Shown here: positions 1,154 through 15,946 of the stretch, one piece after another
How positions within the stretch are numbered: position 1 is the stretch's first letter
Layout: each line of letters opens with the position of its first letter
Origin: Candidatus Caccoplasma merdipullorum
GTDB taxonomy: Bacteria > Bacteroidota > Bacteroidia > Bacteroidales > G3-4614
NCBI GenBank assembly: GCA_017694415.1
Contig: JADIMW010000068.1
Coordinates: 1 to 61,565 of the forward strand
Reading direction: 5' to 3'
DNA length: 61,565 nt
Program-made: the position numbers and the translations under genes
The notes under the pieces: generated by a model
What the model saw: the letters and a program-made list of their open reading frames with translations, nothing else
Told to the model about the DNA's origin: nothing
Database searches by the model: none

Positions 1154-1227
1154 CGGGGCGTAGCGCAGTCCGGTAGCGCGCCTGCTTTGGGAGCAGGTGG
1201 TCGCAGGTTCGAATCCTGTCGCCCCGA
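1154..1227 (+). tRNA. tRNA-Pro (TGG)
   Basis: CGGGGCG/CGCCCCG acceptor stem, anticodon arm CCTGC-TTTGGGA-GCAGG, T-loop GGTTCGAATCC; CCA not encoded. Confidence 0.98.
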
Positions 1228-1240
1228 CAAAAGCAATAAA

Positions 1241-1284
1241 CACCGATTATCAAATATATGGGTTTGATAATCGGTGCTTATTTT
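1241..1284 (+). terminator. Intrinsic terminator after tRNA-Pro
   Basis: 14 bp inverted repeat CACCGATTATCAAA (1241-1254) / TTTGATAATCGGTG (1263-1276) followed by CTTATTTT. Confidence 0.75.
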
Positions 1285-1448
1285 ATGCAATTTTCAGCCG
1301 TTCCAAAAAAGGGAAAAAGGGCGCACGTCATACTGCAAATTGCGCAGTTTTGGCACGTTCCAGTTAAATTTGTTTGCGGATTGTTTGTTGCATGATTCTA
1401 ATGCCTCAAAGATTATATCGGATTACTTTTTTACACGGCTTCTTCTTA

Positions 1449-1646
1449 CTAAAGCTGCGCTCTCCAGAAACGTAGTATTTCGCTGCCGAGATAAAATCTT
1501 CGTGCTGATTCTCTGCGGAAGCCACATTTTATATAGCCCGCGTTCGTATATCGCCGTAATGTACTTCGGTTAATACCTAAGATCGCCGATGCCTCGCCTA
1601 TGGAATATCGTCCCGTCAGGCTTACTTGTGGTTCTATTGCCGTCAT
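1449..1646 (-). CDS. Excisionase-like / MerR-type HTH DNA-binding protein
   Basis: 65 aa, YSIGEASAILGINRSTLRRY...G...RRFYLGSEI, the HTH_17/MerR winged-helix pattern typical of mobile elements. Confidence 0.85.
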   Translation of the reverse strand: MTAIEPQVSLTGRYSIGEASAILGINRSTLRRYTNAGYIKCGFRRESARRFYLGSEILRFWRAQL

Positions 1647-2045
1647 TATGCTATGCGTTTAATTGTTATCTCGTTGTAGGTGGATGATACAGCGTATCGT
1701 TTGCCGGTATCGCCTGTTATGCAAAATGTCATGAAATATGGCAGACGTTGGGGGAAGCCATAGTGTCTGTCGAACTTGCAAATTGTTTATTTCAACTCGC
1801 ACATTTATTTTGCTCATATTTTTCAATTATATCTGTAGAATATAGGGTGCAACACGATATAGTTTAAACTTAATGACTAACATCAGCATATAGGTTACGG
1901 TTCAGTTTTCATAGTTAAAAATTTTATTTCGTCTGTATATTCTATCCCCTTTCACATATATGTGTAGTGTGTATCGAACTTTGCATTCGGCAAAATGGAC
2001 TTGAAAAAGTTTATTTTTTCTTTCAACTTTCACTATATTTGCAAT

Positions 2046-2120
2046 GGAATCCAAATCCAAATAGGCCACCTCAGCGAGATTCGTTCGCTGTTGGTCTATG
2101 TCGGTTTGGATTTTTTCTTT
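2046..2120 (+). ncRNA. Candidate orphan structured sRNA A1
   Basis: -7 TATATTTG 2034-2041 (no clear -33). Stems AATCCAAA 2048-55/TTTGGATT 2105-12, ATAGGCCA/TGGTCTAT, CAGCGA/TCGCTG; U-tract to 2120. Confidence 0.55.
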
Positions 2121-2189
2121 GTCAGCATATTACTGCGTTTTTCCTGTTTCAGAATTTGGATTCTCAAAGTTTTTGCTTATATTTGTAGA

Positions 2190-2262
2190 ATATAGGATGC
2201 GGCTCGGCATAATCAAATTTGAAAACTCTGTTTTCATTTGTTTCTGCTCTCGCCTTTCGCTA
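2190..2262 (+). ncRNA. Candidate orphan structured sRNA B
   Basis: TTTG 2155-58, 19 nt, TATATTTG 2178-85. Hairpin with TGAAAAC/GTTTTCA and CAAA/TTTG stems; runs into the next promoter. Confidence 0.4.
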
Positions 2263-2272
2263 TATTTGCAAC

Positions 2273-2347
2273 GGAATCCAAATCCAAATAGGCCACCTCA
2301 GCGAGATTGGTTCGCTGTTGGTCTATGTCGGTTTGGATTTTTTCTTT
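2273..2347 (+). ncRNA. Candidate orphan structured sRNA A2
   Basis: TTTG 2237-40, 20 nt, TATATTTG 2261-68. Same hairpin as A1 (2275-2339) plus U-tract. Confidence 0.6.
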
Positions 2348-2410
2348 GTCAGCATATTACTGCGTTTTTTCAGCTTCGGGATTCTCAAAGTTTTTTATTA
2401 TATTTGCGAC

Positions 2411-2485
2411 ATACTCCAAGTCGAGATATTCAACCTCAGCGAGAGTCTTTTGCTGTTTGTTTATCAAACCTTGGAGTTTTTCTTT
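2411..2485 (+). ncRNA. Candidate orphan structured sRNA A3
   Basis: TTCG 2375-78, 20 nt, TATATTTG 2399-2406. ACTCCAAG 2413-20/CTTGGAGT 2470-77, CAGCGAGA/TTTTGCTG; U-tract. Compensatory changes relative to A1 and A4. Confidence 0.6.
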
Positions 2486-2536
2486 GTCGGCATAGAGTAG
2501 TTCATATTTGAGCACCACTCCTTTGGAGATTATTTA

Positions 2537-4738
2537 CTATCTTTGATGTTGAAAGTTCTGTTCAAATCCGAAATATGCGTCGTTTTTGTATGATTTGCGT
2601 CGGTGAGAATAGGACTTTTTATTTTCCAGATTGTTAATGCGGCCATTCTTTCTGCCGTCCGCTTTTTGACTGTCTCGAATACGTTCGGGAAAAAACTTTT
2701 GCCAAATATTTCTTCCAATTCGGCCCGGTCTTTCGCAAGTGTTTCGGGAGATACCGGCTTTATTCCTGTCAAATGAGAGAAAGGACTCATTTGTTCCATG
2801 GTAAACCACCCTCGGCTCGCCGTTCTCGTCCACCACTTTCGACGCATCAGCTTGCAGGATTGAAACTAAACGCCTATCTTTGTACTCGGCAGAAGACGGT
2901 ACAGGTGCGCCCCCCGTTGATGTAAAGCCATTGGCAATCTCATAGAGATTGCCTTTTTCTATTTCAGTAAGGCTATGGTCATAATACCTCTTGCCTTGCT
3001 TTACCCCAATTGTTACTTTGACTGTGTAATCGACACCACCTATTTTCAGTCCACACACATAGTATCGGTAGCTGTCATACTTGCCGTTACCTTTCTCATT
3101 AGGGAGTTCATCTATAAATATGGCGTTCTCTATGAGCTGTGGCGTAACCGCAAGCGATTTCAGGTGTGCTTCGTTATCCATGCGGGAACGGATGTCTTCT
3201 GTGTTTTTTTCGGTTTCCGGGTTTGGATTCTCAAAGTTTTTTATTATATTTGATGCAGTTTTAAGTTCTTGAGAGGTTATTTCCTGCTGAACATTGGGTG
3301 ATGCTGAGGAGAACCACTCAAGAGCTTTCTTTTTATCAACCCACTGTAAACTATTGTTCTCATTTATGGGGCGAATTATGTTCTCTATACGCCGACCATG
3401 AACGGTAGTTACATCGTTGACCTCAATATAACGTCCTCCATCTTGTATTTCCGATGATAAATCAAACGCAACAAACACATTTCTTCCAATCTTGTCTTTC
3501 ATTTCTGACAGGATCGACAGCGATTTGTCATCCTTTTTAAACACGAATATAGGCTCTGAAATTTTTTGCGGCATATTGATTATTGAAGAAACTTCTACAT
3601 TGTGTTTTTTGTTTGCGCCCTTATTTACAACTCTTTGTCGCATCACTATCGGCAAATTTGGCAAGAATATGCTCATAACTCCATTTGGTAGGCCAAGGTG
3701 AAACATCTCGTTTTTACTCATTTTTCCTTGCTGATAACGTTCCAACTCCTCGTTAAATCGCCTATTGACCTCTTCGAGGTCGTTATCCATGCGGAAGCGT
3801 ATGTCTGCATTCTCCGACGAAAACGAGCCTGTGTTGTCCGTAGCAGACTTGATTATATTACCTAAATTTTCTACTAACCCCAATTTCGTAGCTGGAGTTA
3901 AAAGTATTTCTCCGTCAGCACCTCTATTTCCAGAATATACACCAACAACAATATTATAAGGCTGTTCTCCATAGAACAATTCGTAGTATTTGTCAATATT
4001 TGTATTTAGTTCAGATACTCTACCTACTACAGAAATACCCTGTTCAAATATCTGGTCTCTATAATTATAAGACCTTCCCCTTTCGTTTATGTCGCCATAT
4101 CTATATGCAACAACAATAGAAGGTATTATTCCTTTTCTAATTGAATTTATAAGTATTTCAATATAATCTTTTTGAGAAACTATACTTTCAAGTAAGTTGT
4201 ATGCTTTTTCTTCTTGATAGAATATAGATTCATTATCCCATTCCATCCCAGTTTCATTCTCAATTTCTGAAATCTTATTTACATAATTATTAGCCTTATT
4301 TATTGAAATATCAAGTCTTGTTATGGGATTTCTTTCTTTTATGTTTAAGTATAATCCATCTATCACCCTCGGCTCGCCGTTCTCATCCACAACTTTTGAT
4401 GAATTTGTTTGCAGAAGAGAAAGCAAACGCTTATCTTTGACAGCAGAAACAGCATCTTCCTTGTTGGCAAACCCCGTATTTATGGGGTCAATACTTTCAA
4501 GGAGGCTGTTTTTTTCTATCTCGGTCAGTGCATGGTCGTAATATGCTTCACCGTCTTTCACGCCAACAACCAGCTTGGCGGTATAGTCCACACTGCCCAT
4601 GCGCAATCCCAACACGTAGTAGCGGTAGCTGTCGAAGCCCGTCTTTTCCTTGGTGTTGGCCTCTTCGGTGATGAACACGGCATTTCCTATCATTTGCGGG
4701 ATGTAGGCCGCAGATTTGAGGTGCGCTTCGCTATCCAT
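2537..4738 (-). CDS. Large polyvalent protein fragment (2x LPD3-like C-terminal module, MuF-C-like domain, ART-PolyVal-like remnants)
   Basis: 733 aa. Duplicated YRYYV.GL..G.VDYT.K...GVK.G..YYDH.LTEIEK and KVVDENGEPRV(VYHGT); IKSATDNTGSF; HNVEVSSI.NMP..I.EPIFVF. Recognised from motifs, not from a search. Confidence 0.7.
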   Translation of the reverse strand: MDSEAHLKSAAYIPQMIGNAVFITEEANTKEKTGFDSYRYYVLGLRMGSVDYTAKLVVGVKDGEAYYDHALTEIEKNSLLESIDPINTGFANKEDAVSAVKDKRLLSLLQTNSSKVVDENGEPRVIDGLYLNIKERNPITRLDISINKANNYVNKISEIENETGMEWDNESIFYQEEKAYNLLESIVSQKDYIEILINSIRKGIIPSIVVAYRYGDINERGRSYNYRDQIFEQGISVVGRVSELNTNIDKYYELFYGEQPYNIVVGVYSGNRGADGEILLTPATKLGLVENLGNIIKSATDNTGSFSSENADIRFRMDNDLEEVNRRFNEELERYQQGKMSKNEMFHLGLPNGVMSIFLPNLPIVMRQRVVNKGANKKHNVEVSSIINMPQKISEPIFVFKKDDKSLSILSEMKDKIGRNVFVAFDLSSEIQDGGRYIEVNDVTTVHGRRIENIIRPINENNSLQWVDKKKALEWFSSASPNVQQEITSQELKTASNIIKNFENPNPETEKNTEDIRSRMDNEAHLKSLAVTPQLIENAIFIDELPNEKGNGKYDSYRYYVCGLKIGGVDYTVKVTIGVKQGKRYYDHSLTEIEKGNLYEIANGFTSTGGAPVPSSAEYKDRRLVSILQADASKVVDENGEPRVVYHGTNESFLSFDRNKAGISRNTCERPGRIGRNIWQKFFPERIRDSQKADGRKNGRINNLENKKSYSHRRKSYKNDAYFGFEQNFQHQR
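2550..2625 (+). ncRNA. Candidate structured sRNA C, antisense to the tail of the 733 aa ORF
   Basis: TATCTTTG 2538-45 (no -33 at canonical spacing). AAAGTTCTGTTC 2552-63/GAATAGGACTTT 2607-18, CCGA/TCGG; U-tract. Confidence 0.5.
2887..2958 (+). ncRNA. Candidate antisense sRNA at the end of the second LPD3-like module
   Basis: CTTG 2851-54, 20 nt, TATCTTTG 2875-82. Perfect terminator GGCAATCTC-ATA-GAGATTGCC-TTTTT at 2933-2958 inside the coding sequence. Confidence 0.6.
3257..3334 (+). ncRNA. Candidate antisense sRNA at the end of a MuF-C-like module
   Basis: TTTG 3222-25, 19 nt, TATATTTG 3245-52. AAGTTCTTGAG 3263-73/CTCAAGAGCTT 3317-27, GGTT/AACC, TCCT/AGGA; U-tract. Confidence 0.6.
4444..4515 (+). 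ncRNA. Candidate antisense sRNA at the end of the first LPD3-like module
   Basis: TTTG 4408-11, 20 nt, TATCTTTG 4432-39. AAACAGC 4447-53/GCTGTTT 4505-11, TCCTTG/CAAGGA, ACCCCGTA/TATGGGGT; U-tract. Confidence 0.62.
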
Positions 4739-4859
4739 GCGGAAACGGATGTCTTCTGTGTTTTTTTCGGTTTCAAAATTTGGATTCTCAAAAGTTTTTG
4801 CTTATATATTGTAGAATATAGGATGCGGCTCGGCATAATCAAATTTGAAAACTCTGTTT

Positions 4860-7800
4860 TCATTTGTTTCTGCTCTCGCCTTTCGCTATATTTGCAATGG
4901 AATCCAAGTCAAGATATTCAACCTCAGCGAGAGTCTTTCGCTGTTTGTTTATCAACTCTTGGATTTTTTCTTTGTCGGCATACAATAATTTATCTTGGTT
5001 AATCCAGTTCAACCATTCTGCATTATTCTTTGGAAATATACCTCGTATATCGGAAACTATTAACTCTTTACGTTTTTGATTAAAATGTACTCCAACAAGA
5101 TAATTTTTTCCGTTTTGTTCTATTCCCAATATTAGATTTTGAGATTTTTGAGGATTTCCATACTTAAATATGGCAATAGGTTTTTGTATTGTATAAATAA
5201 GGTTTCTTAAATCCGAAATATTAAACGGGTGTTTTGCTGCTTCCGAATGTTCTTTTAGCATCTTTGAGGACATTTCTATCGGCAGGTCGGGAATGCCTGT
5301 ACTGCGCAATATTTTTCCCGGCCGTCCCAACTTGTATATGTGCCCTTGTGGCAGGGTTCCGCTTATCTGCTGCTCCAACTCCTCGTTGAATCTTCTATTG
5401 ACCTCTTCGAGGTCGTTATCCATGCGGAAACGGATGTCGATCTCGCGTGAGGCATCGAGTACTTTTTTCCATTTTTCGTAGGATTTTGTTTCTTTTTCTA
5501 TTACCTTTGCAAGCGGAAGGGCATCCTCTCTTGAAGATGTGAGGCCTCCCAGATCATTAGAACGGCTTAATGCGTCAGCATTGAGCCGTTCTACGTTTGT
5601 AACCTCGTAGGAGTATTGTTTATTACCCTCTACTGCAGACCTGCTTTCTTTCATTGTGGTTTTAACTCTATACACAATGCCGTCTATTTTAATAGCACCA
5701 TAAAAACGATGAATTAATGTATTGGCATTATAACCGTTCTCTGGTCTGCGTTCTTCATCTGTTCCTTTCTTGTAATCAGGATGTTCTTCTACTTCTATGC
5801 TATTGGCGATAACCTCGTCTAATCGGTTAAGAACTGCAATATGTATGCCTATATTGGTGCTTTTATCTGTTGCTTTTTTGCTAACAGACTTTTCTATACT
5901 TTCTCCACTAATAGTATAGTCAAACGCTGTTCCATAGTTGTCATAATACAAAGTCTTGCCTTGATATTTCTTTCTTGCATCTTCTTCGGCTTGTTTTATG
6001 GCCTCTACGACAGAACCTTTATACTTGTGTTTTGGTATGTTTATCACTTTTAGATTTTCTTCGGCAAGGTTAGGCATTACTGTGCCTTTGTTTTCTACGG
6101 CCCTGTTTACTCTTTCCGAAAATGTTTTGTTGTTGTCGCCGAGCCGGTACAACGATTCGGCCTCGGATTTTATGTGTGTTTCCTCGGCGGCTTTGCGTAA
6201 CCTGGCCAGCAGTGCGCTATTGTCTAACACCTTAACGGCATCGGCTTCCTGCATGTTTTTGTAAGATTGAGCCAGCAGGTGGCGTATGTCGGCATCGTTT
6301 ATGTCGAGGTCTATGCCGATACTGCGCAGAAACTCCCTTATTGCCGATATTATCCGCTGCGGGATGCTCTGCCGTACTCCTCCCTCGGCAAGGCGGGCCA
6401 TATATTCGTCCGCTATTATGCGACGCAGTTCTGCCTCTGCGGTATTCGGATATATCTTTTTGTATGTATCTTCATATGCTTTCTGCCGTTTTTTCGGCAT
6501 GGACCGGTAAACGGCATCGCAGAGTGCCCCGAAAGATTCCTCCCCGAGCAGGGCCCGCAACCCTTTGTGTGCAACTGCCTCGTGCAGGATTGTGGCTTTT
6601 ACGTCCTCCGCCGTTGAATGCATGGAGAGGTTTATGTATACTTTTCCGTTGCCGGGTGTATACCAGCCTTTTGCCCGCATGCGCCGAATGGCTTCCTGCG
6701 GGGTCTTGCCTTGCAGGTCCTCTTCGGGTATGTCTTTCAGGTCGGAGACAAGCACAATGTCCGGAGAGGCGGCAAGTTCTGACCGCAGCTCTCTTGCTGC
6801 CTTGCTTACCACGGCCTTTCTCTCTGCCTTTCGCTTTTCTACTGCCTTGGCTACGTTGTCGAGATACTCCTTGCCGAATATCCTGTCTATCTTCTCCCGC
6901 TCCTTTGCCCGGATTTCGGCAAGTTCTTCTTCCGTCATGTCGATAATATCCCTGCTCCCTGCTTCCTCTCCTGTACGATGCACGGGCGGCTCTTGTACGT
7001 TTGAGGATTCTTTGCTATATTTGACTGTTAAATTAGGAGCAGGGCTGTTTGGGGAACTCACCTCATAGGAATTCCGCTTTGACGGTAGATACAGTTCTGC
7101 TCCGTTTCTTATCTTATTTAAAAGATTATTATTCGTTTTTATGTGGACAGAACTGATATAGTTTTCTAATTCTCCGTCTTTATTTACCACTGTTACATTA
7201 TAAGTCTCTGTTCCATCGTACTTTTTGTACAGTTTTACGTACAAGCGAGAAGCATCGGTGTCTTTTATAACAAAGTCGGGATTTTCCAATGTAGCCCGTA
7301 TTGTTCCCGATACATTTTTTCTACTGTTCTTTATTATCTTGTTGTACGTCTCGCGTCTTATCTGAACAAATTCCCCTAATATGGTTCTGACAGGTGAACG
7401 ATATTCTACAATGAATTCCGATATATTTTCTATTTTTGGGGGCAAAGTTTCTTCTGTGCCTTTATTTAATATTTTCCGAAGCACTTTTTCAGCTTCTTTG
7501 CCCGACAACCATTGTCTGTCTTTTTCCGGTATATGTTCTTTTAATTGTTTGTCCGAATACTCCAAAAAAGCATCTCTGTACAATGCAATGTTGCCTGTCT
7601 CTTCATCGACACGTTCCTGTATAACATCAAAAAGATTATCCAAATCTTTTCCGAAAGTTTCCAATTCTTCCTTTGTCGGATATACAAAACCTCTCAATGC
7701 TTGAGGTGTTTTTTTAAACTCCTCGTATGTCATAAGTCCTTTCTGTTCTTTTCCTTTGTGCAGGTTAAATTCGGAGTCAAAAAGTTGATATATTTCGTAT

Positions 7801-14886: not shown

Positions 14887-15094
14887 CTAATTCGTTAGAT
14901 TGTCGATAGGGTATTCCCGTTTGCTTTTGTTTGGATTCGTGAATTGACAAATTTTGCTTTCGGAATAGTTGGTTTGGGTGCATCCGTGCAAACCTCGGGA
15001 TCGACCCTGCTGTCGGGGATTATAAGGATTGGCCGCCAATTACGCGCATGCACTGTGGCTTGAACAATGGCGATTGCGGAATCTGAACAGGATG

Positions 15095-15277
15095 TTAGTC
15101 GCGATGTTCAGTGGTTGTAAAAACGGATGATCTTTTGTCCTTTCTGAAAAGGGACAGGAAACCTTTTACTACACCATGGTAAACGAAGTAAAGCAACATG
15201 ATCGGTAATCCCACGACGAGGGCGAACCATGTTATAACCGTGAAGGCGGATGCCAAGAATGTAAGAAATGTTTCCAT
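15095..15277 (-). CDS. Small membrane protein
   Basis: 60 aa, hydrophobic N-terminal two thirds then a basic tail; minus-strand TACATTTG promoter element at ~15299-15306. Confidence 0.65.
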   Translation of the reverse strand: METFLTFLASAFTVITWFALVVGLPIMLLYFVYHGVVKGFLSLFRKDKRSSVFTTTEHRD

Positions 15278-15397
15278 ACTGTTATTTATAACCTGTTACA
15301 AATGTAGCGATTTTTTTTAAGATTGGCATGTATATTTGATTATTAATATTTTGTTCCGATCTATATCGTCATATCTGCTTTATCGTGTTTTTTGCCG

Positions 15398-15946
15398 CTA
15401 CACAAAGTCGCACAGGTACAGGTGCGTATCGTCGTCTATCATTTCGGGTGTTATTTTCGGGTATCGCCGGTTGTGGCGTTTCGGCCACGGCAGTAACCCG
15501 TCTTTGGGATATACGGGATAATTTTCTACTACGGTGTACTTCGACATGTCTGCCGTACCCCGGCGATATATGTTCCATGTTTTCTTGTTATCGACCGTAT
15601 AATGGATATGTTCTGCTACTGTAGGCAACGACAGCAGGGTATCGATATATTCGCGGAAAGTATCGACATCGCCTTTTTCCAATATTATGCGCCCTACTGC
15701 TCCGGGTTTCAACAGTACTTCCTGCAACAACTGGCAATCGCCTTTTTCATATTTTATTTTCCCGTGTCCGTAATATGACGGCAATATGGCGTTTTTTTCC
15801 ATACAGACTCGTATGTCGAAGTACCTTACTCCTGCGGCATATTGTTCTTCGGGGGTTTTATCTTGACACTTGCTTGTAAAGTTTATCAGTTTCATCCACC
15901 ATTTATGCGGTTTCAGATACGTCATCGTGTTATGGCTTCCTGTCAT
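15398..15946 (-). CDS. PI-PLC X-domain-like phosphodiesterase (phage-type)
   Basis: GSHNTMTY...CQDKT.EEQY.AGVRYFDIRV...HG matches the PI-PLC catalytic His motifs. Confidence 0.75.
   Translation of the reverse strand: MTGSHNTMTYLKPHKWWMKLINFTSKCQDKTPEEQYAAGVRYFDIRVCMEKNAILPSYYGHGKIKYEKGDCQLLQEVLLKPGAVGRIILEKGDVDTFREYIDTLLSLPTVAEHIHYTVDNKKTWNIYRRGTADMSKYTVVENYPVYPKDGLLPWPKRHNRRYPKITPEMIDDDTHLYLCDFV

Follow-up and report, generated by a model that had tools for sequence, protein, structure and literature searches.

The window studied here is the whole 61,565-nucleotide (nt) contig JADIMW010000068.1 of Candidatus Caccoplasma merdipullorum, and it raises the question of what four closely similar 65-nt hairpins do in and beside the gene of a giant polyvalent protein. 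An earlier note, made from the letters alone, had proposed that selection acts on the fold of an RNA and that this RNA is recognized by its shape, as a type III-like antitoxin or a decoy, in preference to plain antisense pairing. We find a conserved, covarying fold that is better on the plus strand of the window, a box, stem, and U-tract that are synonymously frozen, and a unit that outlives the coding frame. The reading that we prefer, with a probability of roughly 55%, is that each hairpin forms the body of a cis-antisense small RNA (sRNA) gene of ~75 nt, with promoter, hairpin, and terminator, opposite a phage polyvalent gene. The four units, whose hairpins were read directly from the window sequence, are as follows.

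2034-2120, plus strand: A1 unit, with the -7 box TATATTTG at 2034-2041, a 6-nt spacer, the hairpin at 2048-2112, and the U-rich tail TTTTCTTT at 2113-2120.
2237-2347, plus strand: A2 unit, with a -33 TTTG at 2237-2240, the -7 box TATATTTG at 2261-2268, the hairpin at 2275-2339, and the tail at 2340-2347.
2399-2485, plus strand: A3 unit, with the -7 box TATATTTG at 2399-2406, the hairpin at 2413-2477, which has a G-U pair in its inner stem, and the tail at 2478-2485.
4863-4973, plus strand: A4 unit, with a -33 TTTG at 4863-4866, the -7 box TATATTTG at 4887-4894, the hairpin at 4901-4965, and the tail at 4966-4973.

The outer arms are AATCCAAA/TTTGGATT in A1 and A2, ACTCCAAG/CTTGGAGT in A3, and AATCCAAG/CTTGGATT in A4. 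The inner stem is CAGCGA/TCGCTG, and A3 has TTGCTG, which gives a G-U pair on the plus strand. The 65-mers of A1 and A2 differ at a single position, a loop base (C at 2082, G at 2309). The description of the four hairpins in the earlier note, with their arms and positions, the retained inner stem, the G-C to G-U change in A3, and the A1/A2 difference in the loop, therefore agrees with the sequence. Its switches at pairs 2 and 8 are also real, but they are just two events among the paralogs of the window, as it had itself cautioned, and statistical support for covariation comes from 62 distinct homologous units and not from these four.

Folding of the plus strand with RNAfold gives -30.8, -30.8, -23.4, and -23.8 kcal/mol for A1 to A4, with z-scores of -7.4, -6.4, -4.7, and -5.9; none of 200 shuffled sequences folds equally well. 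The minus strand is weaker in every copy (-25.9, -25.9, -19.1, and -20.2 kcal/mol). The covariance model R1 scores A1 at 94.5 bits on the plus strand and 30 bits on the minus strand, and A2, A3, and A4 at 95.2, 87.6, and 91.9 bits on the plus strand. Neighboring units are separated by 227, 138, and 2488 nt, and BLAST together with a model search of the host's own genome found no copies beyond A1 to A4.

Homologs were collected from Bacteroidales genomes, IMG/VR phage contigs, and metagenomes. The query was the 136-amino acid (aa) protein tail or its alignment, together with two peptide patterns, [AH]EWLNWI, which lies outside the hairpin, and K[EQ]KIQxLI, which lies within one arm. The protein-based searches led to 7 loci in genomes, to 41 in metagenomes, and to first 7 and then 22 in viral sequences. 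The tblastn search returned 81 rows, and extraction yielded 85 copies representing 55 distinct 65-mers. The final alignment holds 62 distinct 125-nt units without gaps, L080 and L096 having been excluded, as they were from the counts in fixed register, for indels.

In these 62 units, a structure of 25 pairs is formed in 92.8% of the 1550 stem cells; slid registers give only 30-46% pairing. Nine of the 25 pairs change on both sides. Two-sided change amounts to 85 cells, compared with 33.8 +/- 6.0 in column shuffles, and the covariation score is 0.188, compared with 0.117; not one of 500 shuffles reaches either value. Compensatory change far above shuffles is thus found in the larger alignment, which was accompanied by a covariance-model search of genomes, and the case for a conserved fold that the earlier note could outline on three distinct sequences is borne out. 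The clearest covarying pairs are 65-91, 53-103, 64-92, 52-104, and 49-107. Pair 65-91 is CG in 33 units, AU in 28, and UG in 1, and pair 53-103 is GC in 30, AU in 24, GU in 4, and something else in 4; all four combinations of the states of these two pairs are present. Because pair 65-91 ties a K/Q amino acid change to the silent third base of a valine codon, selection on the protein cannot explain this coupling. On a tree built from 360 nt upstream (56 rows), each side of both main pairs switches 9-12 times.

The strand that carries the structure was judged by stability and by wobble pairs. Among 53 distinct hairpins, the antisense fold, which is that of the plus strand of the window, is stabler in 52, with a mean of -26.8 kcal/mol against -21.3 kcal/mol for the sense fold. 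Wobble pairs that are valid solely on the antisense strand occupy 160 cells, against 14 for sense-only wobble; the counts are 50 and 14 when two near-fixed pairs are removed, which had originally been included with the antisense strand in mind. Over 54 distinct units the corresponding counts are 44 and 11, and the silent single-change routes to the two kinds of wobble are about equally numerous (421 and 379). A non-silent R-to-Q change that makes a G-U pair on the antisense strand occurs in 9 of the 62 units.

These counts bear on the idea that the hairpin is a structure of the sense mRNA, such as a ribosome pause or processing site, or that it has no function and owes its distribution to recent spread or gene conversion. 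The hairpin does exist on the complementary strand as well, where 83.4% of cells still pair, and the linkers in which it sits recombine. Against this, wobble valid on the sense strand alone is four to five times less frequent although the opportunity for it is equal, the sense fold is the weaker one in all but one hairpin, and the changes CTC to CTT (0/56) and CGA to CGG (0/50), although harmless to the sense fold, are never seen. The flanks, moreover, are synonymously saturated while the stems covary, a pattern that recent spread does not give. We regard a sense or neutral origin as highly improbable.

Codon usage across the unit was examined in 56 sequences. The table leaves out A1-A3, L073b, L080, L096, L030, L100, L099, L097, L095, L029, and L018, in which the upstream part is short or non-coding, as well as L098 and L088, which have in-frame stops. 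In the flanks, 102 columns have a degenerate majority residue, and every one of them contains mixed codons; the mean synonymous diversity is 0.549, and no column is frozen. The U-tract, hairpin, and -7 box together span 32 columns, which run from the K in DKEK through the KD that follows the hairpin; their mean is 0.206, and 12 of them are frozen (Mann-Whitney p 6e-10). This frozen zone is the complement of the U-tract (AAA GAA AAA), the hairpin, and the box region. Within the hairpin, arginine CGA (50/50), leucine CTC (56/56), and alanine GCT (56/56) are fixed, and the codons of the internal loop vary freely, with 4-6 codons kept. In the box region, the codons are GCA in 40/40, AAG in 45/48, ATA in 27/28, AAA in 33/33, and GAT in 23/24, and synonymous variation is free again in FENP immediately beyond it. 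Two other causes of the freezing were considered and rejected. An overlapping antisense open reading frame (ORF) is interrupted by stops in 45, 25, and 44 of the 62 units in the three frames, and codon bias does not fit the mixed K, E, L, R, and A codons across all 102 flanking columns. Read on the other strand, the stretch encodes a conserved protein tail, predicted to be a helix-loop-helix, just after MuF_C, and it is therefore doubly constrained.

The box and the tail that border the frozen stem give it the outline of a transcription unit. On the plus strand, TATATTTG, a TAnnTTTG box, ends 6 nt ahead of the stem in all four window copies. Among 61 distinct units, the full TAnnTTTG occupies this fixed position in 42, only its TTTG in 13, and neither of them in 6. 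TAnnTTTG at about -7 is the consensus of the primary sigma factor of Bacteroidetes as quoted in the part of PMC7366714 that we consulted. The tail is TTTTCTTT in 4/4 window copies, and at least 5 of the first 6 bases after the stem are T in 52 of the 62 units. The minus strand of the window hairpins has no U-tract. On the plus strand, a stable stem-loop (-23.4 to -30.8 kcal/mol) is followed by a U-tract, which is the make-up of a rho-independent terminator.

The unit is also found where no reading frame holds it in place. Non-coding or divergent copies that keep the box, hairpin, and U-tract are L073b, L030b, L070b, L111, L112, and two intergenic copies in L117. The second copies behind the ORF ends in L073, L030, and L070 carry TATCTTTG or TATATTTG at equal distance; over these and the divergent members the distance from box to stem is 4-7 nt, and one L117 copy has the weaker TATACTTG. 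L111 (900-980) and the two L117 copies (1501-1581 and 1971-2051, 470 nt apart and between ORFs) have other stem sequences and the same architecture, and their RNA strands fold at -26.4, -31.7, and -26.0 kcal/mol, compared with -15.0, -26.0, and -20.6 kcal/mol on the other strand. The L112 unit (1501-1581) lies in another polyvalent ORF, one with a P-loop ATPase region at its end; the outer stem of this unit is entirely new, and the inner stem is compensated (CAGCGG/CCGCTG). In L080, the reading frame is shifted across the stem, and pairing is kept. Together with the covariation and the stem-specific synonymous freezing, these non-coding and frame-shifted copies uphold the central claim of the earlier note, that selection acts on a nucleic acid fold and not just on the overlapping codons. 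As a separate observation, the polyvalent genes that host the divergent subfamily (L117, L111, and L112), within their ORFs or between them, have an SMS/RadA-like P-loop region, and this subfamily probably belongs to conjugative elements.

Relic hairpins occur in three genomes of the host's genus (L103:1501-1581, L104:1501-1574, and L105:1501-1574). They lie in a chromosomal spacer, in sense orientation and immediately behind the stop codon of a host gene for an acidic protein, with lpxA-like and ndk genes to either side, and their outer stem is compensated, C-G to G-C. These relic copies argue for terminator activity of the hairpin as such. The unit could then be a bare, antisense-oriented intrinsic terminator, an insulator that stops stray plus-strand transcription against the late genes, with a box that is not a working promoter. 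The textbook shape of the hairpin with its U-tract would suit this, as would the relics with no box in up to 40 nt upstream, the box that is imperfect or missing in 19/61 units, and the position of three window units in a row at an island edge beside a plus-strand tRNA gene. A bare terminator leaves unexplained the frozen synonymous sites of the box region (the GCA, ATA, and AAA codons above) and the non-coding and divergent copies with TATATTTG or TATCTTTG at 4-7 nt, the weaker box of one L117 copy aside. Most elements, in addition, lie more than 400 codons from the ORF ends, with no nearby plus-strand gene to terminate. We consider this explanation unlikely.

With the promoter box and the U-tract both frozen and the hairpin between them covarying and folding better on one strand, a small cis-antisense RNA gene is the simplest account. 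The plus-strand unit of -7 box, 6-nt spacer, 65-nt imperfect hairpin, and U-tract would be transcribed from its own promoter into an RNA of ~75 nt, nearly all of it terminator hairpin. This antisense RNA may bind the complementary hairpin of the giant mRNA, probably through pairing between the loops, and pairing would lower or cut the expression of the polyvalent gene and of what follows it, which in the phage record G408 is a portal gene.

Several observations weigh against this account. Of 61 units, 13 have a box without its TA and 6 have no box, the largest clade has TTTCTTTG, and the relics L103-L105 resemble plain terminators. A -33 TTTG is not kept across the family, in which the codons at this place vary freely, and the TTTG that stands 20 nt ahead of the box in A2 and in A4 comes from an inserted host repeat. 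The outermost pair is unpaired in 25 of 62 units and the middle pairs 55-101, 58-98, and 62-94 in 15-25 of 62, and some unpaired bases are also frozen, which the fold alone does not account for. The peptide encoded opposite the hairpin is predicted to form a helix-loop-helix, so that protein constraint would contribute to the conservation, and of the two peptide patterns by which loci were gathered, one falls within a hairpin arm. Recombination can inflate the switch counts on the flank tree; the presence of all four combinations still needs selection against mismatched recombinants. Finally, among 23 listed runs, 6 are recorded as RNA and contain part of the stretch, and the RNA data consist of assembled contigs only (from the four best RNA runs), which show neither strand, ends, nor level. 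Neither the 121-nt contig that covers 4868-4982 nor the summed depth, which is higher in the bins of A2 and A4, can be taken as a sign of expression, as repeats and other strains add up there.

The hairpins belong to an island bounded by a tRNA gene (1154-1227) and a helix-turn-helix (HTH) gene (1449-1646) on one side and by an LPD13 gene (13288-14886) on the other, beyond which ordinary chromosomal genes follow. Its two main genes and the host repeat are as follows.

4860-13586, minus strand: gene of the 2908-aa polyvalent protein, with Pfam matches to MuF_C (1.5e-19), PBECR2, ddrB-ParB, LPD1, LPD3, and LPD5.
2537-4738, minus strand: 733-aa ORF, with Pfam matches to LPD3 (two stretches), to a second MuF_C that lacks the hairpin tail, and to the beginning of an ART-PolyVal domain.
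4800-4886, with a second copy at about 2176-2260, strand not assigned: host repeat of ~85-97 nt, about 87 nt long at 4800-4886, inserted exactly at the -7 box of A4 and A2.

The MuF_C domain (PBECR, RNase-fold) of the 2908-aa ORF covers aa 2778-2877, or nt 4956-5255. A4 is antisense to codons ~2874-2895 of this ORF, whose peptide DKEKIQELINKQRKTLAEVEYLDLDSIANI is the complement of the A4 unit, and the hairpins are not intergenic. A3, A2, and A1 lie downstream of the 733-aa ORF, with A3 inside a 53-aa remnant ORF (2357-2518, minus strand). In-frame stops precede A2 (before YADKEK) and A1 on the minus strand, and on account of the stop ahead of it A1 is a non-coding remnant.

The 733-aa ORF has features of its own. 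Its end (2537-2830, minus strand) matches only the first 42 of 140 positions of the ART-PolyVal profile, at 28.1 bits and below the cut-off of 31.2, and its ADP-ribosyltransferase module appears to be truncated where the A3 remnant starts. The ORF also contains an internal duplication (2807-3242 and 4364-4799, 1557 nt apart; repeats D4 and D6, 82-89% identical), and the duplicated stretches correspond to a pair of LPD3-type modules, with the linker IRFRMD ahead of each. Only ~14 kb of the window (1154-15946), adjoining the tRNA gene, is mobile; this part holds a MerR/excisionase-like HTH gene, three polyvalent ORFs (733, 2908, and 532 aa), and a 182-aa ORF without family. No virion or integrase genes were seen in this part, and the island is a decayed remnant rather than a prophage, retaining four hairpin units.

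In the relatives, most elements lie more than 400 codons from either end of a single long ORF, which exceeds 800 codons in most loci, and in the main family the element directly follows MuF_C. G408 is a 62.5-kb record of a temperate phage, 99% complete by CheckV, in which a 3989-aa ORF carries one antisense hairpin. According to PHROGs, a portal gene adjoins this ORF, and terminase, integrase, and DnaB genes are also present. A search for Terminase_6N in five viral records gave no match.

The position after MuF_C is the one lead toward recognition by shape, since an RNase-fold PBECR/MuF_C domain is encoded just upstream of the hairpin. The RNA could be a partner, inhibitor, or substrate of the adjacent MuF_C/PBECR domain, in the way of a type III antitoxin, or a decoy. 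Section 19 of PMC5512222, the portion of that paper used here, describes MuF-C as a PBECR domain (BECR fold) with an RNase or RNA-binding role. In a model of the domain, the mean predicted local distance difference test score (pLDDT) is 80.5, and the hairpin-encoded peptide is predicted as a helix-loop-helix with a block pLDDT of 67-88. A fold search with the MuF_C model in the Protein Data Bank found no match at E <= 0.001, and the best sensible matches, to the BrnT RNase toxin, a chain of a HigBA complex, and a chain of a Salmonella toxin-antitoxin complex, are non-significant (E 0.06-0.4). The inner stem and some loop bases are invariant. For the inner stem, however, no sequence-specific reader is needed, because each inner pair joins a silent position to one fixed by its amino acid. 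Pfam detects no ToxN-type protein in the three neighboring ORFs, the units, which lie on the opposite strand at spacings of 138-227 nt, do not form a short tandem array, L112 and L117 carry the unit away from a recognizable MuF_C tail, and no hairpin accompanies the second MuF_C, that of the 733-aa ORF. With a cis-antisense anatomy that runs from promoter to terminator, and with no CRISPR-like array found in a crude scan of the host, the preference of the earlier note for shape recognition over antisense pairing is not favored here, and we hold such recognition to be quite unlikely.

Insertion of the host repeat brings the stop codon that ends the 2908-aa ORF, splitting the polyvalent ORF, and also the -33 TTTG of A4 and A2. 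BLAST finds 50 matches to it in the 2.1-Mb host genome, often in head-to-tail arrays, among them C39:1-290, C52:62590-62860, C77:6600-6817, and C45:14506-14670. The repeat folds into a long imperfect hairpin without an Rfam match, and its ends are the complement of the TAnnTTTG box. In the close relative G027, the repeat is absent, and a single ORF continues through the linker NPNFETEKNTEDIRFR into a different downstream module (window 4640-5010 compared with L016:1470-1760). Contigs assembled from RNA libraries join repeat to repeat, 2294 to 2433, 4964 to 2477, and 4778 to 3222, and modules seem to be exchanged at the linkers of polyvalent genes.

Exchange of this kind invites an explanation at the level of DNA, in which a single-strand hairpin or conserved junction cassette promotes the exchange of modules between polyvalent genes, much as the conserved junctions of polymorphic toxin genes would. 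After one shared linker, the window and G027 continue into different modules, the contigs join at the repeats, tandem second copies stand at ORF ends in the window, L073, L030, and L070, and single-stranded DNA tolerates G-T wobble too. Yet exchange by homology needs identity and not complementarity, and the compensatory changes and the frozen U-tract and box are left unexplained. A role in DNA exchange is in our view very unlikely.

If the hairpins are cis-antisense RNA genes, a further reading concerns their array in this genome. The island might be an RNA immunity array that the host has kept from the decayed phage remnant, with antisense RNAs that silence the polyvalent and portal genes of incoming related phages and a loop that sets specificity, as it does for plasmid incompatibility RNAs; we think this improbable. 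Four box-bearing units are retained, the virion genes are all lost, and three units are outside any long ORF. The window loops are ATTCG, ATTGG, and AGTCT, and both major stem types are present; ATTGG (16/62) and ATTCG (11/62) are among the commonest loops in circulating phages. Because the target would be locked jointly by protein and RNA constraints, it could not change silently, and the array RNAs could shut down the target genes. Were the immunity array real, the RNA unit, and not the peptide, would be the portable junction piece of polyvalent genes. A mimic of a CRISPR repeat, acting as an RNA anti-CRISPR, was also considered and rejected. The hairpin has no other match in the genome, and a crude k-mer scan of the genome found no CRISPR-like spacer-bearing array, only the ~85-nt host-repeat arrays; cas genes were not searched for.

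The unit is sparsely distributed. BLAST matches occur in 9 of 401 genomes of the order, and the model search finds the unit in 6 of 151 sampled order-level genomes, the host's own genome being counted in both. Model R2, to which divergent members were added, finds the same 6 of 151 genomes as R1 and two more copies in G141. The 136-aa tail had no tblastn match among 50,697 deposited phage genome records. At gathering scores, Rfam 15 reports only the tRNA at 1154-1227 in the whole window, and bases 1250-5300 gave no match at E up to 5. We found no description of such an RNA in the literature, and the main text of PMC5512222 on polyvalent proteins, as far as it was covered, does not contain the terms "antisense," "linker," or "RNA structure." The element is probably an RNA family new to Rfam, an antisense RNA of gut Bacteroidales phages.

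These results would add a well supported structured RNA family to the phages and conjugative elements of gut Bacteroidales, in which very few regulatory RNAs are known. They also offer a clear natural example of a single 96-nt stretch that serves two strands, as a protein segment on one and as promoter, hairpin, and terminator on the other. The unit marks where the modules of polyvalent effector proteins join, and how these proteins are regulated and shuffled is poorly understood. Its proximity to an RNase-fold domain makes RNA-based control of, or immunity to, that domain directly testable. The frozen stretch can also serve as a marker for finding polyvalent genes in metagenomes.

Phage cis-antisense RNAs include lambda OOP RNA, P22 sar, and lambda paQ. 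Like the lambda OOP type, the present unit is short, has its own, here predicted, promoter, consists largely of a terminator hairpin, and lies opposite the 3' part of a phage coding region. It differs in having no sequence or Rfam relation to that type and in being enclosed, together with its promoter, by conserved coding sequence, in most cases midway along a giant ORF. Its conservation extends to many phages of the Bacteroidales, and it is known here from sequence alone. Among RNA antitoxins, those of type I are antisense RNAs over a small hydrophobic toxin ORF, and those of type III are ToxI-like tandem repeats (36 nt) beside a ToxN gene. The likeness to these is that a small structured RNA lies by, or overlaps, the part of a gene that encodes an RNase-fold domain. 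Neither type fits: the overlapped ORF has 2908 aa and encodes a virion-type protein, and no frame of the RNA strand is open in all units; nor was a ToxN family found (Pfam, three neighboring ORFs) or a 36-nt tandem array, and the units are on the opposite strand.

The DonS-type cis-antisense RNAs of Bacteroides, as described in the sections of PMC7366714 used here, are 78-128 nt long and face susC genes of polysaccharide loci, and about half have a TAnnTTTG promoter. The present unit shares their phylum, size class, and antisense location; it differs in lying in polyvalent genes of mobile elements and in doubling as coding sequence. It resembles rho-independent terminators in its stem-loop and U-tract, and is unlike them in its 65-nt stem with internal loops, its location within a gene of the opposite strand, the conserved box upstream, and covariation across the family. 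Polymorphic toxin and polyvalent genes have conserved recombination junctions or cassettes, according to the portion of PMC5512222 that we drew on. The unit likewise lies at module boundaries where the following modules differ between relatives, but those junctions are conserved as sequence, whereas the unit is conserved as a fold with compensatory changes. In kind it belongs with the known cis-antisense sRNAs of phages and mobile elements, and what sets it apart is its full nesting in conserved coding sequence and its site at a module junction.

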